A stretch of DNA of 62,809 bases, from assembly GCA_964601015.1 (NCBI GenBank), contig CAZRLY010000001.1, forward strand, positions 1 through 62,809. Direction: 5' to 3'. Under the pieces are notes generated by a model. That model made no database searches, was not told the DNA's origin, and worked only from the letters and a program-made list of their open reading frames with translations. The first letter of the stretch is position 1. Every line of letters begins with the position of its first letter. This document shows, one piece after another, positions 1,673 to 33,291 of this stretch. The position numbers and the translations under genes were made by a program. This DNA comes from an uncultured bacterium (lineage in GTDB: Bacteria; Poribacteria; WGA-4E; DTYX01; CAZRLY01).

Positions 1673-1675
1673 AAT

Positions 1676-2638: not shown

Positions 2639-2639
2639 G

Positions 2640-3476
2640 TTATAATCCTTGCTCATTGAATAAATATTCAATCACTTTATCACTCTCACCAAAATCGGGT
2701 ATGATGATGTCAGCGCCAGCGTTAATGAGTCTTTGTCTTTTATCAGCGTTCATGTTGAATATGTTGTTTTCCACTGATGCGACGCCGAGTGCTATAGCTC
2801 CTACCGCTTTTGCGTTCTGGATTTCGACATATCCATCCCCTACGATGAGCAATTGGTCGCCGCCCAGATTAAAGTCGCTCAGGATGCCTTTTATCACCAT
2901 CTCCTTGGAAAACCTTTTGTATTCCTTGAGTGCGCCGAATATGCCGCCCTTGAGGTACGGGGTTATTCCCAAAATGTCGGCTTCGTGCTTGACAAATTCG
3001 ATATCAGTGCCGCTCGCCAAATACAACGTAACCCCCCTGTCACATAACTCCTTCAAAAACTCCAGAGAACCACGCAGTCGAAAATCTTTTGCTTCGAGTT
3101 CCCCGCTATCCAATTTTGCAATCCGCCCATTGACTATCGGCAGCAACCTGTCGTTATACATCTGCTTGTACGCAAGAGGTTCCAGTGGCTTTCCTCCACG
3201 TTGTTTAACCTGTTCGCTGAATTCTATCATCTGGTAGATGGTTTGCTTTCCCGTCAATCGGTCGACGTATTCCACGACTATCTCTTCAAGTTTTTCTTTG
3301 CTCTCGCCAGTTGGCGTCTCCATCAAGAGTTCCACCATCATCGGCACCATCACATTCTGCCATCCATCTCGAATTACAGAAATAGTCCCGTCAAAATCAA
3401 GTACAGCATGTTTAATGTCGCCTGCATGTACTTCGTTGATAATCTCTATTTTTGTCTCTTGTAAGTAGTAACTCAC
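2640..3476 (-). CDS. HAD-superfamily hydrolase/phosphatase
   Basis: Motif I 'VLDFDGTISV' (DxDGT) and C-terminal 'VGDGYVE' (motif IV-like). GTG start preceded by GGAGG. Confidence 0.75.
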   Translation of the reverse strand: MSYYLQETKIEIINEVHAGDIKHAVLDFDGTISVIRDGWQNVMVPMMVELLMETPTGESKEKLEEIVVEYVDRLTGKQTIYQMIEFSEQVKQRGGKPLEPLAYKQMYNDRLLPIVNGRIAKLDSGELEAKDFRLRGSLEFLKELCDRGVTLYLASGTDIEFVKHEADILGITPYLKGGIFGALKEYKRFSKEMVIKGILSDFNLGGDQLLIVGDGYVEIQNAKAVGAIALGVASVENNIFNMNADKRQRLINAGADIIIPDFGESDKVIEYLFNEQGL

Positions 3477-6340: not shown

Positions 6341-7102
6341 TTGGCAAAAAAACGCAAAAAAGGGCAAAAGAGGAAAAACATCTATCAGAGACGTTTTGAC
6401 GACTCAGATTTAGCTTGGTTAGCAGGAAAATTTGAAGAAGACAAAAAGCTTAACCCGGATTTAACTATAGAAGAGTTTGCCATGCGCTATGGTATACAGG
6501 CAAAATTGATAAGCCGTTTCATTATCAAACCACACGGAGTAGGCAAGCATACCGTCAGCGTCTGGCATGGAACTACCGCAGACAGGGTAAAGGCAATCAT
6601 GGAAGAGGGGTTTAAAGGAAGCACACGAAAGAAGCTCTGGTTTACCATGAAACCCTTTGAGGCCAAATCTATCGCCAAGTGGAGAGCACTACAGCGCAAC
6701 GAGGAGCCGGCGGTACTCCGTTGCGAAATCAATTTAGCAAAATATTCGCAGTTTGATAGGCCGAAACCTAACCATTATGCCTTCAAACACTCCCATATCT
6801 CCAAAGAGGTTATCAGTAGTGTATCGGGGGTGAAGAGGGATAAGGTTAAACGCCCAAAGGAGAAAAAAAGCCAGCAAGAGATGGCAAATGTGATAATTAC
6901 AAAAGTATCAGGAAAATTGGGCGTTCTGTATTGGATTAATAGTTATCTGAAGTTGAAGGGTGAGGATGCTGTGAGCGAAGAACACCCCGCTGTTGAAGCT
7001 ATTCATAAGTGGGTGGAGACTCAATACGCGGAAGGTAGAGATGAACCGATTTTCGATGAGGAGATGTTGTTGCAGGTTATGAAACACCTTCCCTTGTCGT
7101 AG
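6341..7102 (+). CDS. Hypothetical protein with PARP/Tpt1-like (ADP-ribosyltransferase-fold) signature, copy 1
   Basis: TTG start after AGGAG. Lys-rich N-terminus MAKKRKKGQKRK. 'VSVWHGTTADRVKAIMEEGF' resembles the beta1-alpha1 NAD-binding start of PARPs (LWHGS...I...G) and Tpt1/KptA (YHGT...I...G), followed by 'LWFTMKPFEAKSIA'. Paralog at 25801-26460. Confidence 0.5.
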   Translation: MAKKRKKGQKRKNIYQRRFDDSDLAWLAGKFEEDKKLNPDLTIEEFAMRYGIQAKLISRFIIKPHGVGKHTVSVWHGTTADRVKAIMEEGFKGSTRKKLWFTMKPFEAKSIAKWRALQRNEEPAVLRCEINLAKYSQFDRPKPNHYAFKHSHISKEVISSVSGVKRDKVKRPKEKKSQQEMANVIITKVSGKLGVLYWINSYLKLKGEDAVSEEHPAVEAIHKWVETQYAEGRDEPIFDEEMLLQVMKHLPLS

Positions 7103-7158: not shown

Positions 7159-8148
7159 ATGAACGAAGGTATTGTAATCACGGCGCGCAAACCCACCTAC
7201 GATGTCAAATGCGGTGACAAGTTAGTTCGTTGCGTGTTGCGCCCTAAAATTAGGGAAGCAGATGAGAGATTACGAGCGGAAACGAAGGAAATGCGCTTGG
7301 CTGATTTAGTATCCGTCGGAGACAGGGTGGTTATCAACACACCTGATGGCATCGCGGGGCACATTGAGGAAATTTTACCACGAAAAAGTCAGTTCGGACG
7401 TACTCGCATTGGCAAACTTCCGCAGATAATAGCGGCTAATCTTGACGCACTCTTAATCATCTTCGCTACTAAAAATCCCCCGCTGAATTTGCGCATGTTG
7501 GACAGATTTTTGGTTACATCCGAAGCTGCCGGTATGGATTCTGTCATCTGCATCAACAAAATGGATTTGGCAAAACCGCAAAAGATAAAATCCCAGATGA
7601 ACGTCTATGAAGATTTTTACCCTGTTATCTATGCCAGCGCGGTGACAGGAGATGGAATTGATGAATTACGCGATGCTATGAAAGATAAAATCTCCGCAGT
7701 AGCGGGCCCGTCTGGCGCTGGCAAGTCCACCCTGTTAAACGCCGTTCAGCCGGGACTTAAACTTAAAATTGGCGATGTGAGCGAAAAAACTCAAAAGGGA
7801 AGACACACAACAACGGACGTGGAATTACTGTCGCTGGATTTTGGAGGATTCGTAGCGGATACGCCTGGTATCAGAGCATTAGGACTTTTTGAAATCCCGC
7901 TCGAATATCTGGACAGCTTTTTCCCTGAAATGCGCGAATACCTTGTCAAATGCAAATTCCCCAGTTGTTCGCATACACATGAACCCGATTGTTCAGTCAA
8001 AGAAGCTGTCGAAGCCGGTAAGATAAGCAAAAAACGCTATGACAGCTATCTGCGATTGTTGGGCGTCAAAGGGGGGCGATTTGAGCGAAGGACGAAAGGG
8101 CAAAAGCGTAAGACAAAAAGCGAAGAGCAAAAAGTTAAGGATTACTAA
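7159..8148 (+). CDS. rsgA: Ribosome small-subunit biogenesis GTPase RsgA/YjeQ
   Basis: Circularly permuted GTPase motifs NKMDL, GPSGAGKSTLLN and DTPG, plus the zinc knuckle 'CKFPSCSHTHEPDC'. Unusual Lys-rich C-terminal tail. Confidence 0.9.
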   Translation: MNEGIVITARKPTYDVKCGDKLVRCVLRPKIREADERLRAETKEMRLADLVSVGDRVVINTPDGIAGHIEEILPRKSQFGRTRIGKLPQIIAANLDALLIIFATKNPPLNLRMLDRFLVTSEAAGMDSVICINKMDLAKPQKIKSQMNVYEDFYPVIYASAVTGDGIDELRDAMKDKISAVAGPSGAGKSTLLNAVQPGLKLKIGDVSEKTQKGRHTTTDVELLSLDFGGFVADTPGIRALGLFEIPLEYLDSFFPEMREYLVKCKFPSCSHTHEPDCSVKEAVEAGKISKKRYDSYLRLLGVKGGRFERRTKGQKRKTKSEEQKVKDY

Positions 8149-8186: not shown

Positions 8187-8948
8187 GTGCAAGAATATAA
8201 CGCACAACAAATCAAAGATTCATTGCTTAGAATTATCCAGAAAAATGAGCGCATGTTGGACAGATTTCAGGGCAGAATCATCCGGTCACAGTTTATAGAA
8301 CGCCCGAACCCTCGTTTAATCAGGACTGCGCAGGAGCATGTCCGATGGTATTCTGACCAGTTGTTAGTCCTCAGGGAAGAACTGCGCGATGTCGAAAGAA
8401 TGTTTGGAGGAACTGTTCAACTGCGCGAAGCGGAAGAAAGCGATATTCGCAAGATTTGGCAGTGGAGCAACAATATCGAAGTGCGAAAACTTTTACGCTG
8501 GCCGGCATATTCGCTACAAAAATGTACTGAGGATATCCATCGCTGGAAAGCCGATGAGGACTCATTTCCTTTTTCCATTGATAAACTCACTGGCGAACAT
8601 ATCGGTTTCTTAATTTTGAAGCGGCTTGGGCATCCGTGGGAAGAACGCACTGGGTGTTTGGATTTTATCATTATTGACAAGAATTATCGAGAATATGGCT
8701 ACGGAACCGAAGCAGTCAGAGCGGCTCTATCGTTCGCTTTTGATGAACTGGGCGTAAAGTTGCTTTATTTGTGGACGGCTGCGGATAATGGAGGTGCTAT
8801 CCGTTGTTTTGAAAAGTGCAGCTTTGAAGTTACCGATGTCGAAAACGACATAACCGCCGGCAATGGCGAGACTTATGATAAATACCAGATGACAGTGGAA
8901 AAAAACGAGCAGGTGGGTAAGGGAGCAGAGGAGCAGGGGAGCGGGTGA
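8187..8948 (+). CDS. GNAT-family N-acetyltransferase (RimJ/RimL-like) with ~85-aa N-terminal extension
   Basis: The GNAT core pattern 'FLILKRL...IIIDKNYREYGYGTEAVRAAL' contains the acetyl-CoA-binding-like Q/R-x-x-G-x-G/A segment. GTG start. The 3' end and stop lie inside an octamer-repeat tract. Confidence 0.7.
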   Translation: MQEYNAQQIKDSLLRIIQKNERMLDRFQGRIIRSQFIERPNPRLIRTAQEHVRWYSDQLLVLREELRDVERMFGGTVQLREAEESDIRKIWQWSNNIEVRKLLRWPAYSLQKCTEDIHRWKADEDSFPFSIDKLTGEHIGFLILKRLGHPWEERTGCLDFIIIDKNYREYGYGTEAVRAALSFAFDELGVKLLYLWTAADNGGAIRCFEKCSFEVTDVENDITAGNGETYDKYQMTVEKNEQVGKGAEEQGSG

Positions 8949-8988: not shown

Positions 8989-11301
8989 ATGAACTATCAA
9001 GGTTTGGAACTTGACCAATTTCAAATAGAGGCGATTGATGCCATAAAGAGGGGGCAGACTGCGGTAGTTGCCGCGCCTACGGGTGCAGGGAAAACCGTCA
9101 TCGCTGAATATGCTATCGAAACTGCACTTTTAAACGACGAGAGGATAATCTACACCGCCCCCATAAAAGCGTTCAGTTGCCAGAAATTCAGGGATGTCTT
9201 CATAAAGTATTCAGATAAGGTAGGCATTATCACCGAGGATGTTTCAATTAACCCGCACGCCCCCGTCCTCATTATGACTACGGAAATATTCCGCAATACG
9301 ATATTCGATGCGCCTCAAACGTTGGTGGGTGTGCGATACGTCATCCTCGATGAGATGTACTTCATCAACAAAATTGGTGGCAAGACAGTCTGGGAGGAGA
9401 GCATCATCTTTGCCCCTGAACAGATTGAATTCCTCTGCTTGAGCACTACCGCGCCGAATTTGACACAATTTGCGATGTGGATAAGTTCGGTACGAAACAG
9501 GGATGTCAGGATAATCCACGAGGAAAAACGTCCTGTCCCTCTGGAGCTGAAGTTCTTCTCGGAAAAACTTGGCGTAACAACCCTTGATGAACTCCGCTCC
9601 GTTAAGCACCTCCCTCCTGGAGAACGCCACGAGCAAATCAGCGATGGTAAGAGGGACATCATCTCAACATTCTGTGACGAAGGGGGACTGCCGTGTTTGT
9701 ATTTCTCAATGAGCAGGAAGCGTTGTGAAGAACTCGCTTACGAGTACATGGAATTGGCTTCGCTTAAACCTGAGAAATACAAGCTGCTGTCAGAGGAAGA
9801 AGCAGAGAAGGCGGTTTCAATGTATGATGAGTTGTGCCTTGAACATGGACTTTCCGAAAGTAGGACGGTAGCGTTGATGCGCGAACTTATCGAAAAGGGA
9901 ATGGCATATCACCACTCCGGGCTTTTCCCTCAGGTAAAATTGGTCATTGAGAAACTCTTCGCGATGGGGTTCTTGAAGCTCATCTTTGCAACCGAGGGGT
10001 TCGCCGTGGGGATAAACGCGTACGCGCGAACCGTTGTGGTGGATGGACTTGAAAAGTTCGACGGCAACCGCAGGAGATACCTCAAAGCGCGGGAGTTCCA
10101 CCAGATGGACGGCAGGGCTGGAAGGCGAGGCTTAGATGAGAAGGGATGCGTATATGTGCGTGTAAATCCGTTTGAGGCTGAACTGCCGCTCGTCGAAAGG
10201 ACTACGATGGGCGAGGTTGAAAACATCGAAAGCCAACTCAACCTCTCCTATTCCGTCATCCTGAACTTATATGAGAGACACGGACGGAGGATATATTCCC
10301 TCCTCGAACGCAGCTTCAACAGGTATCAGATGATGGCACCGTTAAACGAGATAGAACAAAAACTCAGTTCTCTCGGACAAGTTGGTGAGATAAGTTGTCC
10401 TCACGGTAAGCCGGAGATTATAGAAGAATACCAAAAACTCACTGACATACTCACCAAGGAGAAGAACAACTTCAAGCGTGAAAGTAGGAGGGTAAGGCGG
10501 GAGTTCAAACGCGATAAATCCGCCCTGAACGCTGCCATTGCCAGATTGCAGGAAGTCCTTGCTGAATTCGAGCGCAGGAGAGCCGACATACCATGTCATG
10601 TTTGTGCTGAACGTGGCAAGTGCATAACACGGTTTCAGCAGGACGCTAAAATCAAGAAAACGTCGTCGCATCTCATTGAACAGAAGGAGAAGATGGACGG
10701 GGACATCCTTGGCGATGTGGCTCGAAAATTGACCTTCCTTGAAGGGCTCGGCTACATCAAAGGGGAAACAATAACCCCAAAGGGGCAGTTCGCCTCTCAC
10801 ATCTACGGACATGAACTTCAGACAACGGAGATTATCTGCAACGGGTATTTCGACATCTTGGATGAAATTGGGATAAATATAACCGCCGCCGCAATTGTCT
10901 TTCAAGCGCATCCTGATGCGTTCTACCAAGAACTTAGCAAGGAACAGCTTGATGTGAGTTTCGCCGAACTCAACGGGCTAATACAAAACCTTCGGCGGAG
11001 ACAGGTTGCCTTTGGTATAGACGAGCCGTTTAAGCTCCTTGATGCCAGCTTGAGTAACATAGTGAGCGTTTGGTGTAAAGGTTATGATGTCGATGAGTTG
11101 TCGAAATTCACCGATGCCGACGAAGGTGATATCGTCATGGGTTTGAGACAAACCATAAATCTCCTGCGTCAAATTGAGGATGCTGTTTGGGACGAATACC
11201 TCAAAGCGAAGGTGCTATCTGCTATCTCGTTGATGAAGGTGGATATTGTGGACGCTGAGAAAGCACTGAGAAGGGAGGTGGGCGATGGCAAGGAGGAATA
11301 G
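8989..11301 (+). CDS. Ski2/HelY-like superfamily 2 helicase with C-terminal DSHCT-like domain
   Basis: Motif I 'AAPTGAGKT', Ia 'TAPIKAFSCQKF', 'IMTTEIFRN', V 'ATEGFAVGINAYARTVV', VI 'HQMDGRAGRRG'. The C-terminus 'VWCKGYDVDELSKFTDADEGDIVMGLRQTINLLRQI' is DSHCT-like. Motif II reads DEMY rather than DExH, and motif III reads STT rather than SAT. Confidence 0.85.
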   Translation: MNYQGLELDQFQIEAIDAIKRGQTAVVAAPTGAGKTVIAEYAIETALLNDERIIYTAPIKAFSCQKFRDVFIKYSDKVGIITEDVSINPHAPVLIMTTEIFRNTIFDAPQTLVGVRYVILDEMYFINKIGGKTVWEESIIFAPEQIEFLCLSTTAPNLTQFAMWISSVRNRDVRIIHEEKRPVPLELKFFSEKLGVTTLDELRSVKHLPPGERHEQISDGKRDIISTFCDEGGLPCLYFSMSRKRCEELAYEYMELASLKPEKYKLLSEEEAEKAVSMYDELCLEHGLSESRTVALMRELIEKGMAYHHSGLFPQVKLVIEKLFAMGFLKLIFATEGFAVGINAYARTVVVDGLEKFDGNRRRYLKAREFHQMDGRAGRRGLDEKGCVYVRVNPFEAELPLVERTTMGEVENIESQLNLSYSVILNLYERHGRRIYSLLERSFNRYQMMAPLNEIEQKLSSLGQVGEISCPHGKPEIIEEYQKLTDILTKEKNNFKRESRRVRREFKRDKSALNAAIARLQEVLAEFERRRADIPCHVCAERGKCITRFQQDAKIKKTSSHLIEQKEKMDGDILGDVARKLTFLEGLGYIKGETITPKGQFASHIYGHELQTTEIICNGYFDILDEIGINITAAAIVFQAHPDAFYQELSKEQLDVSFAELNGLIQNLRRRQVAFGIDEPFKLLDASLSNIVSVWCKGYDVDELSKFTDADEGDIVMGLRQTINLLRQIEDAVWDEYLKAKVLSAISLMKVDIVDAEKALRREVGDGKEE

Positions 11302-12979
11302 AATAGGTAAGCACTGGCATAACAACGTAAGCGCGCATCTCACAGCAAGATACGATGTAGCGGTCAAACAGGGACAGGAGGCTGTCGAGGGGATGTCTGC
11401 CCGTCATTTTAGTAAGTTTTCCGAAATATATGGGTATTATTCCCGCCCTGAAATCCAGCAAGCCATTTTTGACTATGCTAAGGGACGTAAGATAACCGTC
11501 CTCAAACACTTCAGAGCGCTTTACAAATCCCTCGAAAAACCGGAGGATATTCTGTCTCTGGCAATCTATCACGCGATGTACAGCAAGTTATGGACTTCGT
11601 TTCATGGGATGGTATCCAGAACCTCTGAGGACAGGAAGGTATGTGATTTTGTGATAGAGGTGGATAACAAACGCAGTTGGAAACGATGTTTCGAGGCGAC
11701 AAGGCCTGTAATCGACATGCTCAACGATTTCAACGTATACTATTGTGTTAAGTTCAGCGGACACGCCAGCGCGCACGTTATTATTCCCGGCGAGGTATTC
11801 CCGGGCGATAGGATGAGCAGCGCAAAATACCGCTCACACCTTATGAACTTCGTAGGCAAACTCGTCAAAGGCGAAAAACTCGACCGGTCTTTTACTAATC
11901 CCTCCCATTTCCTCCGGCTTGCTTACTCGATTAACGAGAACACAGGGTTGGTGAGTATGCCCATATTCATGGAGGATTTTGACAATTTTTCATGGCGGGA
12001 CGCGAAGCCCGAAAACGTGGAAATACTGGAGGGATGGTGGAAATATGCCCCCACTGATGCTCAAGAACAGATGGCAAAACTCCTTGACTTCTTGACGAAG
12101 GAACGCTTTGCCATCGAAAAACAGGCAGCCTCGAAGCAGTTCCAAAAAGTTGACACATTTGAGGACGTGAAAGATAAACCTAAAGGGGGTGTGAGATTCG
12201 GACAACTTCTTCAGCCAACCGACAAACAACTTTACGAAGGGATGCTCAAAACTGCAAGGGAACACCTCAATTGGGTTGCATCAACGAAGGAGAATCCAAA
12301 TTTTAAAGCCGCTCTTGACGAGGTAAGATATCTCACTCAAAACGGGCTTGTGCTGAGTCTCTTCGAGATAAGCCAAAAACACAAATTTGACCTGAAAGAA
12401 CTCTGGAAGGCGTGGCGATGGGAACTGAAAAGTGACGACATCAGCTATTATTCTGACCAGTCGGTGCAAAAGGACATCTTTGAGGCGACACAAAAAAGAA
12501 ATGTGAAACTCGGCGAAGATGGCCCGGTCGTGAGAATCGAAAACCCGGAGGATGTGTTTCTACTCGCTGTTTTCATGAACATGCGTTTTGGCATAAATGA
12601 ACACCCATCATTTTACCGTTCCCTTGCGTGGGGCATACCGGGCAAACTGACTGAGGGATGTGACATCGCAATTCAAGCCGATGGCAAAGGCGACAGAGCA
12701 CGGGCGGCTGAAGCGATGCACGAAGCAGTCTCCGCTGTATCCGAGCTTGAGGTTGAAACGACGGTATTTGACGAGGGGATGAGCAGTTTCACCTGTGTCA
12801 TTCCACATCACGACAAAGAGGACAACCTCCTCAAGAGTGTCAAGAAACAGCTTAACATTCGCACGAAAACATCAGTAAAACTGCTTGATGAAACGAGTTA
12901 TATGCTTGCTCCCCGCTCGCTCAATTCATTTACGGGAAAACCGTGTATCCCAGTGTTGGTCAACAATCCTTCCTTATAG
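11285..12979 (+). CDS. PriS-like archaeo-eukaryotic primase (AEP) protein with second degenerate AEP-like domain
   Basis: Motif I 'CDFVIEVDNK', motif II 'VKFSGHASAHVIIP', motif III 'HFLRLAYSINENTGLVSMPI'. The C-terminal repeat carries 'CDIAIQADGK', 'VFDEGMSSFTCVIP' and 'YMLAPRSLNSFTGKPCIPV'. Overlaps the helicase stop by 17 nt. Confidence 0.6.
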   Translation: MARRNRIGKHWHNNVSAHLTARYDVAVKQGQEAVEGMSARHFSKFSEIYGYYSRPEIQQAIFDYAKGRKITVLKHFRALYKSLEKPEDILSLAIYHAMYSKLWTSFHGMVSRTSEDRKVCDFVIEVDNKRSWKRCFEATRPVIDMLNDFNVYYCVKFSGHASAHVIIPGEVFPGDRMSSAKYRSHLMNFVGKLVKGEKLDRSFTNPSHFLRLAYSINENTGLVSMPIFMEDFDNFSWRDAKPENVEILEGWWKYAPTDAQEQMAKLLDFLTKERFAIEKQAASKQFQKVDTFEDVKDKPKGGVRFGQLLQPTDKQLYEGMLKTAREHLNWVASTKENPNFKAALDEVRYLTQNGLVLSLFEISQKHKFDLKELWKAWRWELKSDDISYYSDQSVQKDIFEATQKRNVKLGEDGPVVRIENPEDVFLLAVFMNMRFGINEHPSFYRSLAWGIPGKLTEGCDIAIQADGKGDRARAAEAMHEAVSAVSELEVETTVFDEGMSSFTCVIPHHDKEDNLLKSVKKQLNIRTKTSVKLLDETSYMLAPRSLNSFTGKPCIPVLVNNPSL

Positions 12980-23166: not shown

Positions 23167-24174
23167 TTAGCGTGTTCTTGTTTCAATAAATGCCTTGAGT
23201 ACATCAAGTTTGATTTTTTGCCCTTTTTGAGGGTAATCATAGGGGAATAACCACCATTCTTCAGTAAAGGAAGCGTTTTCACCCGGTTGAAGTGTCTCTA
23301 AGGGTCCGATTGGTTCCAATTCACACATCTTTTCTTTGAAATACCAAATTGAAATGGTGAGAGCCGCCATTTCGCCATAGATGCGTTTCGGATATACGGG
23401 GAACCTTTTCACAAAAAGCAGATCATCTCGCGTAATATACCCCAACCAGCCTGCATACGAATCAATGCCGAACTTAGGCTGTGGCGGCGTTCCTGATATT
23501 TCAAGAAAACCATCCCTTATTTTTATATTCGGATGGGCTTCAGGCCGATAGTTCATAACCGGTCCTGGGCCGTAGAGAATATATCCCAATGGGAAACGGC
23601 TTCCCTGAGTTAGCGGTACTAAACAGATGCCACCGCCTGTGGCAAAGGTGCGACTCCAATGGGAATACTGTTTTGTGGAACCGCTGATATTTTTGATAGT
23701 CTGTGTGCATTTTAGAAGTGACGATACTTTATCAAGTTTGAACTCACGAATGAGTTGGACACCAGTAATTTGGTCTTTAACACTGGTTAGACGTGCTGTG
23801 CGCGGTGCGATAATCTCGGCTGTCCACTTGCCAAGCCAGAGGTACGGACGACGAGGAATTATCTGCTCTGGGCCGATGTCAAAACGTCCTGCACAGGGGT
23901 CAATTTTCCTCTTCCCCGGTATATTAGTCCAGCCATCCTGCTTTGGGTCAATGTACAGTGCATTCTGCCCGTTCAGAGAGTACTCCAGCACTCTACCTCC
24001 GCAGTTTGGTTCCAGTATAACCTTGATGGTGTTATTAGAAAGTTGAACACAGTTGGAATACCCATGACTGCTTACCCAGGCGGTTCCCTCTGAAGTAGCT
24101 TGAGGGAAAGCCTGGATGCAGAGTAGCATAGTCAGTACGAAAATAATCAACTCGAAAGTGATGTTTCTTATCAT
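23167..24174 (-). CDS. Secreted hypothetical protein (mutarotase-like/DUF4380-like, tentative)
   Basis: Signal peptide MIRNITFELIIFVLTMLLCIQAF after a GGGAGGA RBS. 'ILEPNCGGRVLEYSLNGQNALY' resembles DUF4380-type proteins, from memory only. Confidence 0.4.
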   Translation of the reverse strand: MIRNITFELIIFVLTMLLCIQAFPQATSEGTAWVSSHGYSNCVQLSNNTIKVILEPNCGGRVLEYSLNGQNALYIDPKQDGWTNIPGKRKIDPCAGRFDIGPEQIIPRRPYLWLGKWTAEIIAPRTARLTSVKDQITGVQLIREFKLDKVSSLLKCTQTIKNISGSTKQYSHWSRTFATGGGICLVPLTQGSRFPLGYILYGPGPVMNYRPEAHPNIKIRDGFLEISGTPPQPKFGIDSYAGWLGYITRDDLLFVKRFPVYPKRIYGEMAALTISIWYFKEKMCELEPIGPLETLQPGENASFTEEWWLFPYDYPQKGQKIKLDVLKAFIETRTR

Positions 24175-24200
24175 TGTCTCATATCCTCCCTTTTCCCTAC

Positions 24201-24278
24201 TGGTGATTGGTGATTGGTAGAGTGGTGGGTGGTTGTGTTTGCGAAGTACCACTAACCACTAACCAGTTTACCAGTTAC
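24201..24278. repeat. Heptamer short tandem repeats (GGTGATT x2 ... CCACTAA x2, CCAGTT(T)A x2)
   Basis: Direct reading gives TGGTGATTGGTGATTGGTAGAGTGGTGGGTGG ... ACCACTAACCACTAACCAGTTTACCAGTTAC. The two halves are partly complementary. Confidence 0.7.
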
Positions 24279-24339
24279 GGTTTCAAGACAAACACACTGT
24301 TGTAAACCTTAACTTTAATAAGCAGTAGTCCTCAAACAC

Positions 24340-24398
24340 GCTCAATAGGGATTGGCAAATCCCGATTATTCCGTTGGATTTGCCAATCCAACGGGAGC
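24340..24398. repeat. Paired-hairpin (REP/BIME-like) element, copy 1
   Basis: GCTC..GGGATTGGCAAATCCC (24348-24363) .. CCGTTGGATTTGCCAATCCAACGG (24371-24394) GAGC. Confidence 0.75.
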
Positions 24399-24441
24399 AT
24401 TTGCGGAGTATTGATAATCAAAATTGCGTAGCATTGTTAAG

Positions 24442-24759
24442 TTATTCAGATTTCGATATCTTAATGGTGATGTCAGCCGGCAGTGCCAGTCCTGCTTCTA
24501 CTTCGACCGCTTTGAGAATCCCGACTGGAACAGGACAAGCAGGATGGAGGCAATACTTAGCTGCTAATTGCAACGTGAGGGGGCCTTCATCCCTAAATGT
24601 AATTTCTCTGAAGGGCACAACCTTGCGCAATTCTGCTGCCAGACGCTGGATTGACTCACATTCGCTTTCAATCGAAAGGGCACAATCAGAGCCATCCATA
24701 CGAACCTCTACATCGGTTGTGAAACCACATATTCCCGCAAATATCTTCGCCTTTGACAA
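24442..24759 (-). CDS. Small cysteine-rich conserved hypothetical protein
   Basis: 105 aa. TTG start 8 nt after AAGGAG. Cys residues in 'GICGFTT', 'SDCALSIESECES' and 'YCLHPACPVPVG'. No function assignable. Confidence 0.5.
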   Translation of the reverse strand: MSKAKIFAGICGFTTDVEVRMDGSDCALSIESECESIQRLAAELRKVVPFREITFRDEGPLTLQLAAKYCLHPACPVPVGILKAVEVEAGLALPADITIKISKSE

Positions 24760-24827
24760 TTTTTATCTCCTTGTCACTAATTCAGCATATCAACTTTTTG
24801 GTGTTCAAAATGATATTCTTTCTCAAC

Positions 24828-24855
24828 CAAATGTTAGCATACAAATGTTAGCATA
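24828..24855. promoter_or_regulatory. Perfect 14-nt tandem direct repeat upstream of the small Cys-rich gene
   Basis: CAAATGTTAGCATA occurs at 24828-24841 and again at 24842-24855, about 70-95 nt upstream of the minus-strand start at 24759. Confidence 0.3.
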
Positions 24856-24931
24856 TTTCATTGGCTGTGCCAACAAAAAAATCACGAATGAATGGATTTT
24901 TTACAGAGCGTAACATCTTTAGAGCCGGGCC

Positions 24932-25804
24932 TTAAGTTAGTGTGGGAGAATTTTTGAAAGTAGAACGATTAAGAAATCTTCCAAAGTTAATTGAGTGCTC
25001 TACAGCATCGGAGGGAATTTGCCACCAGTCGTCCCACACCAAAACCTCTTCGGGCATTGCCCACTGGGGATGGAAAAACTCATAGTCGTCTAAAGGAATG
25101 GGAAGGCTAACGAGCCCAGTATGCTCGTGCATAGAATACGGCAGGCGCAAAAAATGGTCAGGCAGCGTGAAAAAGGACATATCCAAACAGCGTGGTGATG
25201 GAAGTAGCCGGCGGACAAAGTCGAGTATTGAAGAGCGCAGGCGGTTGGCAAGCGTGGCGTCCGCCGGAAAAGCTTCCGCTGGAATAATCAAATGAGGGCT
25301 GGTATTGCCGCTGAATTTAACGAAAAACGTCACCTCAAACTCACGTAGCCGTCGAACAATCGGTAAGGCTGCTTCAAACGCCATCTGCCATGGATCCGAC
25401 TTAAAATCAATATCAAGCACGAAATCCTTGAGGATAGGTTGGGTGCCGTTGTATCGCGTGATGGTGCCGTGTAGAGCGGGCCAGAAGAGCGGCAGGTCAA
25501 CAGCAGCGAAAGCGAGCGGTAGGATGTCGTCGGGGGTTGTGGGGGCGGGCATAGCGCAACGAAAAGCCCGTTGCAAAGTCAACTTACGGGATTCTGCGAA
25601 TCGGTAAATCGCCTGTTGAACATCCGGGCAGGCATAATAATCGTAGAGCAGGTTGAACACGATTCGGTCTGCTGGCGGTAGCTTGTCTTGCAGGTAGAGT
25701 GTCAGTAGTCGCTCGCCCTCGCGCAACGCACGCACATAGCCGGCCTTCCCGCTCCACAATTTTGATTGATGTTTGCCCGGAGGCTTTCTTTTCTTTCGCT
25801 TCAT
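24932..25804 (-). CDS. PriS-like archaeo-eukaryotic primase (AEP) protein, short paralog
   Basis: Motif I 'DFVLDIDFK' (DxD), motif II 'VKFSGNTSPHLIIP', motif III 'HFLRLPYSMHEHTGLVSLPI'. Colinear with the N-domain of 11285-12979. Start at MKRKKRK, overlapping the upstream stop as ATGA. Confidence 0.6.
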   Translation of the reverse strand: MKRKKRKPPGKHQSKLWSGKAGYVRALREGERLLTLYLQDKLPPADRIVFNLLYDYYACPDVQQAIYRFAESRKLTLQRAFRCAMPAPTTPDDILPLAFAAVDLPLFWPALHGTITRYNGTQPILKDFVLDIDFKSDPWQMAFEAALPIVRRLREFEVTFFVKFSGNTSPHLIIPAEAFPADATLANRLRSSILDFVRRLLPSPRCLDMSFFTLPDHFLRLPYSMHEHTGLVSLPIPLDDYEFFHPQWAMPEEVLVWDDWWQIPSDAVEHSINFGRFLNRSTFKNSPTLT

Positions 25805-26460
25805 AACATCTCCTTCGCAAAGTCCCACTCATCCAACAGGGCATCAAGTTTGTCCTGCGATGGTGCGAAGAGGTCAGAAGTATGCGCGTATATTTGCCAG
25901 GTTTCAAGGGCGGGGTGTTTCGCGAAGGCCTTTGTTTCGGGCGGAATAAACACGCACTGCGTGAATACTTTGGGAAATGTTTTGAAAACCACATGCATCT
26001 GCTTCCGATGTTGAGCAGCAATGCATCTTTGAACGTACAATCGCTCTAACACGCAAGCAATCAGCGCAGGGAAATCAGATTCCTGACGTGCTCGTCCTTG
26101 TGCGCGTTCCAAGCAGACATACGGCTCAAACGATGTATATACGGGACATACAAATCCTCCTGCCAAAATTTGAACAGCCCTGGATAGTGTCGTACCATGC
26201 CACACACAAACATAGTTTTCTGGCGAGGAAAACAGAGAGTCAGCGGAAAACCAAATCCTAAGCAGCAACCCACGCGCACCGTAGTTTATGAGAAAGTCAA
26301 AAAAAGTTTGTTCAGGATGTTTCTGTGCCTCTCTCTTGTATTGGAGTAGCGCCCACGCTAAGTCGCTCTTCTCAAAGGTTGGAAAAATTATCGGCGTTTT
26401 CTCAATTGTCTTTGGTTGATGTTTTGATTTATTCTTCTTCTTGTGTTTCATATGTTGCAT
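25801..26460 (-). CDS. Hypothetical protein with PARP/Tpt1-like (ART-fold) signature, copy 2
   Basis: 'VCVWHGTTLSRAVQILAGGF' followed by 'PVYTSFEPYVCLERA'. Shares 'SDLAW' and a Lys-rich N-terminus (KHKKKNKSKHQPK) with 6341-7102. Start uncertain (ATG at 26460 or 26451, GTG at 26478). Confidence 0.5.
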   Translation of the reverse strand: MQHMKHKKKNKSKHQPKTIEKTPIIFPTFEKSDLAWALLQYKREAQKHPEQTFFDFLINYGARGLLLRIWFSADSLFSSPENYVCVWHGTTLSRAVQILAGGFVCPVYTSFEPYVCLERAQGRARQESDFPALIACVLERLYVQRCIAAQHRKQMHVVFKTFPKVFTQCVFIPPETKAFAKHPALETWQIYAHTSDLFAPSQDKLDALLDEWDFAKEML

Positions 26461-27176
26461 TAATTCAGGCGACCACACGGGGTTGCGTCTACAAAGTTAT
26501 ACACTATAAAACAATCAAAATGGTAAAAATAAAAGTATCCGCATCCTGTAGTGCGCACCGTTTCACTTTGGACGCCCCACACGGGCTTCAGCAATGTAAA
26601 CAACCTCTATAAAACACAGGATCGGATGCACTTTGACAGGGATGTTTCATTTTACCTTAAAATCACAGCGAAGATAACCTGACACTTCTCCCCACAGAGT
26701 CCACAAAGTTACATCTGACGCTTGTTTATCTATTTTTCCGAGAAGACCAGTAACGTCCGGTTAAAAAATTGCATCTGTCGTAAGTAATCAAGAAGAATGG
26801 AAAACGGAGTAGCAAGCTTTGGGAAAGGTACAAATTACGCAGGCTAATTCTATTAAATGATGAACTAAATGTTTGGTCAAAGTTACTTAGCTTGCGTCCT
26901 ATTGCTCCTAAAAAGCCTGCTAATCCATAGTGCAAAATCCTAACCGGACATCACTGGAGAAGACAGATGAATCGGTAAAGAGTGGCAATTTTTTTTCTTT
27001 ACTTTAACGTTTTAGTCAATTTAGTCAATTTTTAATTCAGCGGGGAAGAAACGGGGTGGCACCCAGAGAAGTTGCTTGCCCCGGTCCGAGGGCATACCTC
27101 CGAAACATTACTCAATTCTGACCGGGGAAGCCCATGTCAACTGGATTCGATGCTCTATTTTTTCCTTCGGTTTCTA

Positions 27177-28292
27177 TTATCCAAACAACGGTTCGCCGTC
27201 CGAAAGAAGCGACTGTGCAAATTCCTCGTTCAATTCCAATCCCAACCCTGGTGCGTCGGGGATGGTGATGTAACCATCTTGAATAAGCGGTTCATTGATG
27301 ATGACAAGTTTGTCCCAATTCGGGTCGCGCATTCTATGCCACTCCAGCACGAGGAAGTTGGGGATGCAGGCGCAAACGTGGCAGGAAGCGATAGTTCCCA
27401 ACGGACCGGATACATTGTGCGGTGCCATTGGAATGTAGTAAATTTCAGCCATGTTTGCTATCTTCCGAGATTCGGATAGCCCGCCGCACTTTGGAATGTC
27501 GGGCATGATGATGTCCACGGCTTGTTTTTCAATTAGGTCGCGGAATCCGTAGCGCAGGTAGAGGTTTTCTCCCACGCAGATTGGCGTGCGTGTGGACTGT
27601 TTGATTTGCAGTAGTGCGTCCACGTTCTCAGGCGGGACAGGTTCTTCCAGCCACATCAGATTGTACGGTTCCAGTGCGCAAGCGACTTTTATACCGCTGT
27701 GTGTATCATATCGCCCGTGCATGTCAATCGCCAGGTCAATTTTCGGGCCGATGGCTTCGCGGACAGCAGCTACTTTGTCCACCATGTTCTGAAGTTCGCC
27801 GGGCGTAATTGACCAGTTCCACCTGTCCAATTTATTCGCATCGCCAGCGTCGTCAATGTCGAACTTCAGCGCGTTGAACCCCTTTTCGACCACTTCCTTT
27901 GCCCTTTCAGCGTAAGATTCTGGCGTCCTACCTCCTCCGCTGTCGGCGTATACCCGAATCTTGTCCCTGAATTTTCCACCGAGCAACTGATAGACAGGCA
28001 CATTGAGTGCCTTTCCAGCCAAATCCCAGAGCGCGATTTCGATGCCGGTCAAGGCGGTTACAAAATTTCCCGCCATCGCACCATCAAAGATATACGAGCG
28101 TCGTGCCTGCTCAAACAAACAGTCTATGTCAAGGGGATTTTGACCGATGAAATGCCTCTTCACCGCACCGATAATATTTGCGCATCCTGCACCCCCATGA
28201 ACACTTTCACCTGTGCCAGTCAAACCTTCGTCCGTATAAACCCTGATGAAAAAACCACCAGCGCGTGACGTTTTTATGTCCGTAATTTTCAT
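27177..28292 (-). CDS. Enolase-superfamily enzyme (mandelate racemase/muconate lactonizing family, acid-sugar dehydratase-like)
   Basis: Typical N-terminal capping domain 'MKITDIKT...', and barrel metal ligands in 'DLAIDMHG', 'WLEEP' and 'VGENL'. Confidence 0.85.
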   Translation of the reverse strand: MKITDIKTSRAGGFFIRVYTDEGLTGTGESVHGGAGCANIIGAVKRHFIGQNPLDIDCLFEQARRSYIFDGAMAGNFVTALTGIEIALWDLAGKALNVPVYQLLGGKFRDKIRVYADSGGGRTPESYAERAKEVVEKGFNALKFDIDDAGDANKLDRWNWSITPGELQNMVDKVAAVREAIGPKIDLAIDMHGRYDTHSGIKVACALEPYNLMWLEEPVPPENVDALLQIKQSTRTPICVGENLYLRYGFRDLIEKQAVDIIMPDIPKCGGLSESRKIANMAEIYYIPMAPHNVSGPLGTIASCHVCACIPNFLVLEWHRMRDPNWDKLVIINEPLIQDGYITIPDAPGLGLELNEEFAQSLLSDGEPLFG

Positions 28293-29854: not shown

Positions 29855-29897
29855 TTTTGAGATGAACCGATCGGTTGGTTCATCGGCGAACCCTACG

Positions 29898-29973
29898 CAA
29901 AAAGAAAGGGGGGAAACCTGAGGAGAGGAGAAGGGCAAAGCCCTCTCCTTTGGCTTGTCCCCCCAAAATAGAA
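29898..29973 (+). promoter_or_regulatory. Structured 5' leader, copy 2
   Basis: GGGGGG (29908-29913) ... GGAGAAGGGC (29927-29936) AAA GCCCTCTCC (29940-29948) ... CCCCCC (29959-29964) AAAATAGAA-ATG. Shares 17 of 18 nt around the start codon with copy 1. Confidence 0.4.
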
Positions 29974-32900
29974 ATGAAAAACAACTTTTGCATTGAACAG
30001 GCGCGAAATGTAGATATTATATTGCTGATAATTTTATTCTCGTTAGCTTTCTGTTCAGTTGGAACGGCTGAAACGTATACTGAAGAGATAGAATTGCCCA
30101 TCGATTTTGATGATGTCTATAGCATGTCAATAGAAAATCAAAATGGCGACATAGAGGTTATCGCATGGGATAAATGGGAGATGTTTATAAAAGTTACCAA
30201 AAGGATAGATGCGCCTGAAGAGGAGGCAAAACTTTATGCGGAACAAATTGAAATTCAGCAATCTAAAGAGGAAGACCAAATAACGATAAAAACTAAGTTG
30301 CCTGACGTTCCTGTCGCAGTCAAGGTTGATTACCAACTTAGCGTATGTGCGGATGTCGCCCTTCGCATTCGGTTAGAACAGGGGAATGTCCTTGTGAAGG
30401 GGCTTAATGGCACAGTGGACATCGGTGTTGTAAACGGTGCTGTCGAGCTTTCCGAAGTCATTGGGAAATTTCAGGTGACAGTAGTAAGGGGTTCAATTAC
30501 AGGTAAGATTTTACTTGATGGAAAAAGCGAGTTTTCCCTGAACGATGGTGCGATAAACATTGATATTCTGGATACCCTGGATTTTCCATTTACCGCTGAA
30601 GCTACTAATATCACACTTCGCCTACCTCACGAATATTCAGCGTCTCTGGAAGCGCAGGCTGAAAATGGAATAGTAAAATGCGGGATACCGCTAACGTTGA
30701 CGAAACGGGAATCGGAATCGGTTCTGCGCGGACGGTTAAATGATGGTGGCGCTAAAATAAAATTGAAAGCGCTAAACGGAAATATTGATATTCAATCATT
30801 GTCAAAGTCAAGAAAATTGGACGAACCAACTGACATCTTTGCGCCCGAACCCGAGAAGATGCCGATTGAAAGCGCCGATGTCCCAAAAGCAGAGGTGACG
30901 CCCAAAATAGACGGCTCATTAAATGAGAGGGCGTGGAGAACGGCTGCTCGGTTGGAGGGGTTTTATGTGGCGGATGGTTCGGAGCCGGCTTACGAATTTA
31001 CAGAGGGCTATCTGCTCTGGGATGACGATAATTTTTACATCGGCGTCAAAGTCTGCGATTCGCAGATGTCCAAAATAAAAATCTCTCAGACAGCACACGA
31101 TAGCGCAATCTGGGAGGATGATGCGATAGAGGTACTGCTCAAGCCGGAACCGGATAACCCACGATACTATCACATCGCTGTCAATCCCATCGGAATAATT
31201 TTTGACCAGCGCGTATACGGCGAACACAAACCCGATTCCCTTGGTTCGGCTATACAGCGGATACGGCGCGGCAAGGTAAAAGTCTCCAGCATAACTGACC
31301 GAACTTGGAATTCTAACTGCCTCGCGCGGACTGATATAACTTCTGGATTTTGGACTGTTGAGATGGCAATCCCGTATACATCCATCGGAGTAGTCGCGCC
31401 ACAACCCGGTGACGAATGGCGTTTTAACCTACATCGCAAGGAACAAGCCCTTAAAGAGTATTCATACTGGTCAACTACCTACGCCCCCCAAGAACATGCC
31501 GCCTGGCCGCACTTTCCCGAACGTTTTGGAAAACTGCGTTTTGTTGAGTTCCCACAAGCGGAGGAAGCAACGACAAAACTCGCAAAAATTGAAATCAGCG
31601 GGAATAAATTTGTAACCGAGGAGGAGATTCGAGAGGCGATAGGTTACAAGGAGGGGGATGCGTTCAACGCTGCATCCATCCCTGAAACGCGCCGATGGCT
31701 CGAAGAATCCGGCTGGTTCAAATACGCCAACCTGACGCTGGAGTCTGACGACATTCTCATTATCAAAGTCCTTGAAGAACAATTGAAAGTTGTTAAATCG
31801 GTGGAAATCCAAGGCAGTTCGTTTTTCACTGACGAACAACTGATTGCTTATTTTAATTTGAAACCGGGCAGAGTCCTTCCTCATAACATCGTGACAAAAT
31901 GCAGTTTGATGGCTAAATTGTATCACAATAATAACTACCCGTTAGCTTCAGTCGATTATGAAATTGCCAATGGGAAACTCATCATAACAGTAGACGAGGG
32001 GCATTTGGATAAAATCAAGATAGTGGGAAACAAGCGAATTAAGCAAAGCGAAATTTTGGAATACCTTGAATTGTCCCCAGGTGATGTTTATAATAGTGAT
32101 AGTGGAGAAGAACACGTTGCTACTTTAGCGGCGAAGTTGAAGAGGAAAAACGTATTTAAGCGTATCAAAAACTGGAGTGTGAGCAACGAGGATGGAAAAA
32201 ACACACTCGTAATTGAAATAGAGGAACAACCGATTGTAAACCCTGTCCCACGTCCTTCCATCGGATTCAATCGAATACACGGATTAAAACTCGGAGGCGG
32301 CGTTGAATTGTCCACAGAATACGCGGACGGCGGGAGGCTCTATGGCGACATATCCTACGGTTTTTCCAGCAAAACCGCAAATTACCAGGTGGGCGCGGAG
32401 AAAAGATGGTTTGACAAACATCAATTTACCGTAGGCGCGGAAGCCCATAAACTTACCGATACAAATGACTTCGCTCTGCTCTCACCAGCAGAAGATTTTC
32501 TGACAAAGGTGTTCTTGGGGAGGGAGTTTAAAGATTATTTTCAGCGCAAGGGATACGAAAGCACTTTGAGCCAAAAGTTGACGCCATCAACCACTTTGAG
32601 CGTCTGTTATGCTGATGATAAATACAATAATCTTTTCAAGAATACCGATTGGAGTCTGTTTGATTACAGCACTTCCAAAAGAAGCAATCCACGGATTAAC
32701 CCAGGCAGAATACGAAGCATCAGCATAGCATACAAATTTGACAACCGTAATAAAAAAAGACATGCTGTTCGTCATCTCCGTCGCTACCCAGTTCCAAGCG
32801 GACAGACTACCTACGGTTGGCAGGGATATTTCTCGCTGGAATACGCGGGAAGGAAGATTGGCAGCGATTTTGATTTCACCCTGTGCCGATTTTCCATTAC

Positions 32901-33291
32901 CCGCTACAATCGGCTTTCCGGGAACCAGACTATTGATGTTCGCATTGCAGGGGGTTTCGCCGATTCATTCCTGCCCGCTCAACGTTTGTTTTACATAGGT
33001 GGTGTGGGAACATTGCGTGGATACGATTTTAAGGAATTCATGGGTGATAACATGCTCTTGCTCAACGCCGAATATCGGCTGAAACCAAAATATACACTAC
33101 CTTTGTACTTCGTTACCTTTTGCGATTGGGGGTATACCTGGGAACATGAAGGTAAAATTGACTTGGAAAGCTCTCATACTACCTTGGGCGTTGGCGTCCA
33201 ACTCGGTGACAATATCAGGATAGATTTGGCGCAACCGCTGGATAAAGGTAGGGCTGTCGCGCTTCTGTTGCGATTGGAGAGGATGTTTTGA
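29974..33291 (+). CDS. Omp85/BamA-family outer-membrane protein with N-terminal DUF4097-like and CBM9-like modules
   Basis: Signal/anchor 'IILLIILFSLAFCSVGTA'. Repetitive beta-strand region. 'IDGSLNERAWRTAARLEGFYV...WEDDAIEVLL...YYHIAVNP' is CBM9/DOMON-like. Three POTRA-like repeats. C-terminal barrel ending 'YIGGVGTLRGYDFKEFMGDNMLLLNAEYR...RLERMF'. Start trimmed to MKNNF. Confidence 0.75.
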   Translation: MKNNFCIEQARNVDIILLIILFSLAFCSVGTAETYTEEIELPIDFDDVYSMSIENQNGDIEVIAWDKWEMFIKVTKRIDAPEEEAKLYAEQIEIQQSKEEDQITIKTKLPDVPVAVKVDYQLSVCADVALRIRLEQGNVLVKGLNGTVDIGVVNGAVELSEVIGKFQVTVVRGSITGKILLDGKSEFSLNDGAINIDILDTLDFPFTAEATNITLRLPHEYSASLEAQAENGIVKCGIPLTLTKRESESVLRGRLNDGGAKIKLKALNGNIDIQSLSKSRKLDEPTDIFAPEPEKMPIESADVPKAEVTPKIDGSLNERAWRTAARLEGFYVADGSEPAYEFTEGYLLWDDDNFYIGVKVCDSQMSKIKISQTAHDSAIWEDDAIEVLLKPEPDNPRYYHIAVNPIGIIFDQRVYGEHKPDSLGSAIQRIRRGKVKVSSITDRTWNSNCLARTDITSGFWTVEMAIPYTSIGVVAPQPGDEWRFNLHRKEQALKEYSYWSTTYAPQEHAAWPHFPERFGKLRFVEFPQAEEATTKLAKIEISGNKFVTEEEIREAIGYKEGDAFNAASIPETRRWLEESGWFKYANLTLESDDILIIKVLEEQLKVVKSVEIQGSSFFTDEQLIAYFNLKPGRVLPHNIVTKCSLMAKLYHNNNYPLASVDYEIANGKLIITVDEGHLDKIKIVGNKRIKQSEILEYLELSPGDVYNSDSGEEHVATLAAKLKRKNVFKRIKNWSVSNEDGKNTLVIEIEEQPIVNPVPRPSIGFNRIHGLKLGGGVELSTEYADGGRLYGDISYGFSSKTANYQVGAEKRWFDKHQFTVGAEAHKLTDTNDFALLSPAEDFLTKVFLGREFKDYFQRKGYESTLSQKLTPSTTLSVCYADDKYNNLFKNTDWSLFDYSTSKRSNPRINPGRIRSISIAYKFDNRNKKRHAVRHLRRYPVPSGQTTYGWQGYFSLEYAGRKIGSDFDFTLCRFSITRYNRLSGNQTIDVRIAGGFADSFLPAQRLFYIGGVGTLRGYDFKEFMGDNMLLLNAEYRLKPKYTLPLYFVTFCDWGYTWEHEGKIDLESSHTTLGVGVQLGDNIRIDLAQPLDKGRAVALLLRLERMF

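Follow-up and report, generated by a model that had tools for sequence, protein, structure and literature searches.

We analysed a 62,809-nt stretch of DNA (hereafter the window; GenBank assembly GCA_964601015.1, contig CAZRLY010000001.1, positions 1 to 62,809) from an uncultured bacterium of the Poribacteria lineage. It carries on its minus strand two overlapping genes, which encode an ADP-ribosyltransferase-like (ART-like) protein (25801..26460) and a primase-polymerase of the archaeo-eukaryotic primase (AEP) superfamily (24932..25804). Because the ART-like protein and the AEP have been inherited together, duplicated together and once fused together, their sequences point to a two-protein machine acting on nucleic acid. 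Our leading reading, which we hold with slightly less than even confidence, is that the pair forms a chromosomal, vertically inherited operon whose two products would act jointly on nucleic acid, by a mechanism that would involve NAD+ and phosphate ends.

The gene pair, its recurrence and its duplication

The open reading frame (ORF) of the ART-like gene encodes 219 aa from the ATG at 26460, and its probable true start is the ATG at 26451 (216 aa), where the homologues start. The N-terminal sequence MKHKKKNK quoted in the original prediction is obtained from ATG 26451, whereas ATG 26460 yields MQHMKHKKK. The AEP ORF encodes 290 aa. The proposed coupling of the two genes through an ATGA overlap is borne out by the sequence, read directly at 25801..25804 of the minus strand, where the TGA stop of the ART-like gene and the ATG start of the AEP gene share these four nucleotides (junction sequence GCGAAGGAGATGTTATGAAGCGA). 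A Shine-Dalgarno-like hexamer, AAGGAG, lies within the ART-like gene 5 nt before the AEP start (25810..25815, minus strand). Both genes are under purifying selection, with dN/dS values of 0.19–0.33 for the ART-like gene and 0.11–0.21 for the AEP gene. An exact copy of the ART-like gene is present in public data (P0001), and the G+C content of the two-gene region (about 0.47) is inside the window range of 0.43–0.52.

The short forms of both proteins are rare, with 13 matches per family among 5.8 billion proteins (35 for the paralogous ART-like protein described below). A metagenome scan with the AEP profile produced 57 loci, all of which were then scanned with hidden Markov models. Adjacency of ART-like and AEP genes was found in at least four arrangements, at 30–80% identity. 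The short pair, with the ART-like gene preceding the AEP gene, shows the ATGA overlap in L002–L005, L089 and L031 and has a 160-nt spacer in place of the overlap in L006–L009; its flanking genes differ between the window, the L002/L006/L089 group and L031. Long-form AEP genes are followed by rsgA and one or two ART-like genes in L021, L033 and L045 (in L021 RsgA was confirmed and the ART-like protein matches PARP with E = 9e-4), or by an ART-like gene in L050, L058 and L032. The long-form order in the window is ART-RsgA-GNAT-helicase-AEP. Homologues of the two genes are therefore neighbours well beyond the window, as the pairing proposed in the original prediction would have it.

Identity among the linked partners is 30–64% for the AEPs, 28–52% for the ART-like proteins and 42–73% for RsgA. 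The distance matrices of linked AEPs and ART-like proteins are strongly correlated (r = 0.96, Mantel p = 1e-4) and the two neighbour-joining trees display the same split into a short-module and a long-module clade, so that the phylogenetic congruence of the two families, which had been put forward as a check on the pairing, was indeed observed. Judged from these sequence comparisons, a functional link between the two families is well supported.

The window itself contains a second set of the same genes on the plus strand: an ART-like gene (ART2; 6341..7102, 253 aa), which belongs to the long-module clade, and a long-form AEP gene (AEP2; 11285..12979, 564 aa). The ART-like protein of the short pair (ART1) is 28% identical to ART2 over 112 aa (E = 4e-13), in agreement with the paralogy originally proposed, and its AEP partner (AEP1) is 40% identical to AEP2 over 235 aa (E = 7e-57). 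The suggestion that each of two loci holds an ART-like gene together with an AEP gene stands insofar as paralogues of both are present, but the members of the second set are 4.2 kb apart, with rsgA (7159..8148, plus strand), a GNAT gene (8187–8948) and a Ski2-like DEAD/DSHCT helicase gene (8989–11301) between them. We considered the GNAT and helicase genes as conserved partners and rejected them since neither recurs at any other locus. Both trees give the same two clades with one window member in each, which is consistent with an old duplication that was retained as a pair and indicates that, as far as the trees can tell, the pair was duplicated, or acquired, as a unit.

The two families also meet within a single polypeptide. 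In the 1141-aa protein P0115, an ART core at residues 98–192 (44% identical to ART2, E = 2e-21) interrupts the AEP, separating its N-terminal region from its catalytic core (E = 2e-15). The AEP motifs of P0115 read EAD, KYSGVRSLHLMIP and LRLAYMLNEDNGLVNLPI, and the AEP is followed by HEAT repeats and then by an FGE-sulfatase domain.

The rsgA gene of the window scores 234 bits on TIGR00157 (cut-off 100), which makes it a bona fide equivalog, and rsgA repeatedly accompanies the long-form modules as a third gene. Its position is between or next to the long-form AEP and ART-like genes in the window (7159–8148), L021 (6318–7388), L033 (3573–4691), L045 (2692–3840) and L053 (11871–12962); these loci are deeply diverged and the gene order in the window is unlike that in the others. 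The minimal short pair has no rsgA neighbour in any lineage examined. For the long forms, this association suggests a possible connection of the substrate, or of the timing, with RNA or the 30S subunit and not with chromosome breaks.

The region of approximately 700 nt upstream of the operon (26461–27176) contains no ORF of at least 70 aa, only short ones of 43–69 aa, and has no Rfam match; the spacers that match it in L002 and L006 are only about 150–240 nt long. A wider Rfam scan (24000–27400, E <= 1) produced no match either, and promoter and terminator scans returned sites that are no more numerous than in shuffled sequence.

The two proteins

The AEP carries all three catalytic motifs, so that its assignment in the original prediction as an AEP with a canonical DID motif I is sound. 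All the residue motifs quoted there (SDLAW, VWHGTT, PVYTSFEPY, DID, KFSGNTSPHLIIP and FLRLPYSMHEHTGLVSLPI) were found. Motif I (D131-I-D133; 25406..25414, minus strand here and for the other motifs) has D133 invariant among 12 AEP homologues and either D or E at position 131. In motif II (KFSGNTSPHLIIP, 25280..25318), which includes KFSGNTSPH, residues K163, S165, G166, S169 and H171 are invariant in the same set, and the motif aligns with KTSGGKGMHLLVP of the LigD polymerase domain (PolDom; SGGKGMH). Motif III extends from D208 to FLRLPYSMHEHTGLVSLPI (25097..25183), where D208 is followed by the run H217-F-L-R220-L-P-Y223-S-M-H-E227-H-T-G230-LVS; D208, H217, R220, Y223, E227 and G230–S233 are invariant, and the motif aligns with HLLKSPFSVHPKTGRISVPI of PriS, the small primase subunit.

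The fold was confirmed by an AlphaFold model (pLDDT 82.3, pTM 0.81) and Foldseek. The best structural match is the bacterial Prim-PolC (5op0; E = 1e-6, TM 0.52), then come LigD PolDom structures (4mky, 2r9l and 2fao follow 5op0; probability 1.0 and TM about 0.5 for both Prim-PolC and PolDom), and eukaryotic and archaeal PriS and a CRISPR-associated Prim-Pol rank after these; all 40 PDB matches at E <= 1e-3 are AEPs. The family profile matches LigD PolDom (E = 1e-4) and PriS (E = 2e-4) in the PDB. The protein falls below the curated thresholds of PF21686 (LigD_Prim-Pol; 25.9 against 27.4 bits) and PF01896 (13.8 against 26.8 bits). Among species-representative genomes, the family is found in metagenome-assembled genomes (MAGs) of Candidatus Poribacteria, in one other MAG and in one MAG labelled Hadarchaeota, and the next sequence relatives are PriS of Woesearchaeota and Nanoarchaeota (24–30% identity). 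The motifs, the near-miss scores, the structural matches and these relatives together indicate that, on sequence and model, the protein is an intact member of the 'AEP proper' type that is placed between PriS and PolDom and belongs to neither curated family. Its earlier description as PriS-like holds for the next sequence relatives, which are archaeal PriS, but not for the nearest structures, which are those of the bacterial repair enzymes Prim-PolC and LigD PolDom.

With these repair enzymes the window AEP shares the fold and the single-domain architecture of about 290 aa without a Zn knuckle. It differs from them in missing the Pfam cut-off given above and that of NCBIfam (23.3 against 214.7 bits), in having a PriS-like N-terminal helix region ('YDYY..DVQQAIY') and a PriS-like motif III, and in being partnered with an ART-like protein. 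Unlike LigD PolDom of non-homologous end joining, it has no gene for Ku or an ATP-dependent ligase nearby; none was seen in the flanks of L001–L007 or L089. The resemblance to PriS is clearest in motif III (LRLPYSxNExTGLVSLPI against LLKSPFSVHPKTGRISVPI), whereas the score on TIGR00335 is only 14 bits (cut-off 143.5), there is no PriL-like neighbour, no cysteine that could bind Zn is invariant in the 12 homologues, and the host is a bacterium that presumably already uses DnaG.

Other AEPs of this family occur in different surroundings. A short subfamily without the basic tail (262–274 aa) is present in L023 (5448–8053), L066 (4232–6912) and L067 (9971–12612), where a 605–618-aa protein with a DUF4097 'toastrack' domain is encoded directly after it or overlaps it; this looks like a different AEP partnership. 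In L035 (5000–6927) and L037 (11769–13687) a long-form AEP is followed by proteins of 464–466 aa and 172–177 aa which, judging from their N-terminal sequences alone, may be an AAA-type ATPase and a PIN-like protein and thus possibly an adjacent toxin or defence pair.

The ART-like protein consists of a basic tail, a helical N-domain that is probably of the helix-turn-helix (HTH) type, an ART-fold core and a short C-terminal helical module. The core (residues 83–192; 25885..26214, minus strand) was delimited from alignment invariants, the PDB profile search, Foldseek and profile matches. Its H88-G89-T90 triad (26191–26199, minus strand) is invariant in 37 sequences from both subfamilies, and I98, G102-F103, A120 and F159 are further invariants. 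Strand 2 is aromatic in every member (VYTS, IWFT, IYFA or IFFA), and strand 3 is compatible only with the H-H-h type of the third position in the published scheme, which divides ARTs into the clades H-H-h, H-Y-[EDQ] and R-S-E (PMC9503650). The protein is thus an H-aromatic-hydrophobic form, whose logic comes nearest to that of the Tpt1 type.

Direct matches of the ART-like proteins are weak and consistent. ART2 matches the NCBIfam RNA 2'-phosphotransferase with E = 0.005; the family profile retrieves exotoxin A as the best PDB match (E = 0.013), along with PARP3, PARP10 and Tpt1. The AlphaFold model (pLDDT 79.5, pTM 0.73) has ARTs as all of its top 19 PDB matches in Foldseek, with Tpt1/KptA first and PARP10, PARP1 and typhoid toxin also present (E 0.12–1.1, TM 0.17–0.27), and the named viral matches are again ARTs. 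A much stronger link is transitive. A search of 1.84 billion representatives with profile A1, made from 37 sequences, gave 703 matching proteins at E <= 1e-3, including P0114, P0131, P0132, P0139 and P0134 (2e-25 to 1e-15), and proteins matched by A1 pass PF00644 (PARP; 1e-19 to 4.7e-36) or PF01885 (PTS_2-RNA, Tpt1; 9e-13) on the same residues. We take this link to be decisive for the assignment, which holds at the superfamily level only; at that level the ART-like identity originally proposed is borne out.

Comparison with Tpt1/KptA reveals the same pattern [WY]HGT..x..I...G[FL] followed by an aromatic strand, a helix and 'PV[VI]h', as well as the same lack of a catalytic Glu, in addition to the top, though weak, Foldseek matches and the NCBIfam match of ART2. 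The N-domain (residues about 30–78, with SDLAW and P..TF.DF...YG; 26227..26373, minus strand) comprises four helices in the AlphaFold model and has weak homeodomain matches (E 0.07–0.3, profile against PDB), and because this domain precedes the ART core, the layout resembles that of Tpt1, in which a nucleic-acid-binding helical domain is followed by a C-terminal ART lobe. It is, however, a different helical module from that of Tpt1/KptA; Tyr, Trp or Phe stands in place of the second His, conservation does not extend to the R-H-R-R tetrad and the scores are far under the cut-offs (16 against 231 bits). The H-Y-[EDQ] clade of PARPs, exotoxin A and ARTs of polyvalent proteins likewise shares the HG[TS] strand and the aromatic strand 2, and it is Pfam PARP that A1-matched proteins pass on the same residues; the window protein differs in its non-acidic third position, its shorter domain and the absence of a toxin-delivery or polyvalent context.

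The relatives of the ART core are varied. In P0114, P0132, P0131 and P0139, PARP-like partial domains occur two to four times in tandem, each covering Pfam PARP positions about 45–132. In many proteins (such as P0138, P0146, P0151 and P0144), the 65-aa half of the ART core that reads 'WHGT..GF..WFT' forms the start and HEAT repeats come next; one of them, of 1543 aa, adds ECF sigma-factor regions and carboxypeptidase-regulatory repeats. The C-terminal module 'HPAVE...W...GR..PISDEEML' (A1 columns about 560–660) is duplicated in some ART-like members and also occurs alone in proteins of 70–190 aa (P0109, P0118, P0128 and others). In L010 (3486–5655), a gene for a beta-CASP/RNase J-like metallo-beta-lactamase lies 77 nt upstream of an ART-like gene with 54% identity to ART1, and there is no AEP gene in the 440 nt downstream.

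Strongly basic N-terminal tails had been ascribed to all four proteins of the two sets. A net charge of at least +7 in the first 14 residues is reached by five of the 44 large ORFs in the window, three of which are ART1 (Lys-rich tail MKHKKKNKSKHQPK; 26410..26451, minus strand), ART2 and AEP1 (MKRKKRKPPGKHQ; 25766–25804, minus strand), but AEP2 has only +4. The tails are kept in homologues from other contigs, and that of the ART-like proteins reads MK[HSR]KKKNKSK or MAKKRKK across both subfamilies; they may bind nucleic acid. The N-module of the ART-like proteins is also found at the N-terminus of long AEPs in L062 (E = 7e-7) and L055 (E = 9e-4). These AEPs (1330–3366 and 384–2492, respectively) have no ART-like neighbour, and their own N-terminus consists of a basic tail and 'P.lSL.e.A.rhGV' helices. 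A comparison of the C-terminal extension of the long AEPs with the N-module gave an hhalign E of 0.027 at a probability of 2%. A 1138-aa protein encoded at 29875–33291 of the window also has a strongly basic start (MVHRRTLRKKKGGKP) and a length near that of P0115. It was considered as a third ART-like copy and rejected, being unrelated to both the ART-like and the AEP families.

Proposed joint action and its alternatives

If the two proteins work together, their tails and the HTH-like N-domain would hold them both on DNA or RNA. The ART-like subunit would bind NAD+ and transfer ADP-ribose to a terminal or internal phosphate in the manner of Tpt1, leading to 2'-phosphate removal or end capping; alternatively, it might merely sense a phosphate end. 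Since the subunit has no catalytic acid, the substrate phosphate would have to be the nucleophile, or the subunit would be confined to sensing. Tpt1/KptA needs no catalytic Glu because the phosphate serves as the nucleophile. At this site the AEP would next prime or extend synthesis and so fill a gap or lengthen an end, in the way that PolDom and Prim-PolC act on phosphorylated gaps.

Several observations weigh against such joint action. The congruence of the trees partly represents shared vertical descent, and an ART-like gene stands beside only seven of the 16 non-redundant AEP loci that have at least 1.5 kb of upstream and 2.5 kb of downstream sequence. A complete 5-Mb genome (L014) contains an ART-like gene with no AEP gene within 10 kb, and the approximately 54%-identical ART subgroup (L010, L087/88) has no AEP gene in its short flanks. 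Five contigs, which come from several samples, have a Tn3-family transposase gene (DUF4158 + DDE_Tnp_Tn3) integrated at the 3' terminus of the ART-like gene (L011, 7345–8337; L012, 5298–6290; L013, 296–2459), which produces a 330-aa fusion ORF (P0009) and cuts the ART-like gene off from any AEP gene; in one population the two genes have thus been parted by a natural insertion, and they may be dispensable. The ART-AEP fusion is known from one representative sequence only. As to the ART-like protein, its strand 3 has the form [HYVIT]-[YVI]-[AV]-F (VVF in the window protein) and contains no conserved acid. Without a conserved catalytic Glu, Asp or Gln, activity is not assured, and the domain could be inactive. 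The Tpt1 R-H-R-R tetrad is also absent, R94 being the sole nearly invariant Arg and the N-domain having no conserved R-H dipeptide. All direct ART statistics are under every curated threshold: the Pfam PARP match has E = 0.15 and 12 bits against a cut-off of 26.7, and the best Foldseek E is 0.12.

The missing acid and the missing Arg/His tetrad are also what favours a non-catalytic role, in which the ART-like protein would be an accessory or regulatory subunit of the AEP. It would be either a pseudo-ART with NAD+, ADP-ribose or a nucleotide as its ligand or simply a tether that keeps the polymerase on nucleic acid by means of the tail and the HTH-like domain, comparable to what PriL or PriX does for PriS. 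Such a role would suit the compact, diverged core with its low Foldseek TM (about 0.2–0.3), the insertion of this core into an AEP in P0115 and the exchange of the N-module between the partners (L062, L055). On the other hand, H-G-T and the aromatic strands have remained invariant over the divergence of more than 700 relatives, which exceeds the needs of a scaffold, and established knowledge of Tpt1/KptA tells us that this type of chemistry works without a catalytic acid. We regard an accessory subunit as unlikely, if well worth entertaining. It is scarcely credible that the two genes serve to initiate the replication of an integrated mobile element or that they are adjacent by chance. Many bacterial AEPs are indeed replicases of mobile elements (PMC11724360); around this pair, however, there is no integrase, helicase or repeat boundary, no relatives were found in the plasmid or phage collections, and chance would hardly create adjacency in at least four arrangements as well as a fusion.

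A conflict system, directed against phages or of the toxin type, would have the ART modify invader or host nucleic acid or protein while the AEP senses invader DNA or makes a signal or decoy. ARTs and PrimPols are both generally known to recur in defence, polyvalent-protein ARTs are among the relatives, flanking genes vary among lineages and in some cases include an HNH gene or a restriction-modification pair, and the putative AAA ATPase and PIN-like genes follow the long AEP in L035 and L037. The nearest known model would be DarT-DarG, the toxin-antitoxin pair that ADP-ribosylates single-stranded DNA, since it too combines in a two-gene operon a small bacterial ART that may act on nucleic acid; its partner, however, is a macrodomain antitoxin and not an AEP, and the window pair shows no sign of mobility. 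Neither protein matches any PADLOC family, no relatives turned up in viral contigs or in the phage and plasmid collections, and no gene for a macrodomain, ARH or NADAR-type eraser or antitoxin adjoins the pair; no connection of the pair with phages, plasmids or known defence systems came to light. The trees fit vertical descent within essentially one phylum, a housekeeping gene (rsgA) is the recurrent neighbour and two divergent copies are retained in one genome, all of which makes a conflict system distinctly unlikely. We consider it quite improbable that the pair serves RNA or ribosome maintenance, with a Tpt1-like enzyme that removes or caps RNA phosphates, an AEP that acts as an RNA-templated or terminal polymerase and coordination with 30S maturation through RsgA. 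This would explain why rsgA lies between or beside the genes in the first locus of the window and in L021, L033 and L045 despite AEP identities of 33–63% and differing gene order, and it would accord with Tpt1/KptA being the nearest ART among the named matches, with the beta-CASP/RNase J-like gene directly upstream in L010 and with the H-H-h clade being mainly linked to RNA repair (PMC9503650). Yet the minimal pair lacks an rsgA neighbour, the closest AEP structures are those of DNA repair polymerases, genes for an RNA ligase, RtcB or a kinase-phosphatase are absent nearby, and the rsgA linkage could be synteny inherited within one clade.

Returning to joint action on nucleic acid, a more specific version would be an NAD+-coupled nucleic-acid synthesis system, in which a Tpt1-like ART ADP-ribosylates or caps a phosphate on the primer, template or product of the AEP and the long forms are wired to 30S biogenesis via RsgA. 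This version is a long shot. If true, it would represent a bacterial counterpart of the logic that leads from PARP to repair polymerases, or a novel pathway for maintaining RNA or rRNA, restricted to Poribacteria and relatives.

Implications

Both proteins are diverged representatives of known superfamilies; their obligate-looking pairing, the co-duplication, the fusion and the link to rsgA are features that we did not find described in the literature searched. The taxonomic range of the pair is narrow, while nucleic-acid ADP-ribosylation and primase-polymerases are subjects of wide interest. The pair offers a concrete two-protein target for asking whether a Glu-less ART can modify phosphate ends of nucleic acids in bacteria. 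It also raises the questions of what role orphan bacterial AEPs have outside non-homologous end joining and mobile elements and why the gene for a 30S-maturation GTPase, rsgA, travels with ART-like and AEP genes. The answers would show what two so far unannotated protein families do in an uncultured phylum associated with sponges.

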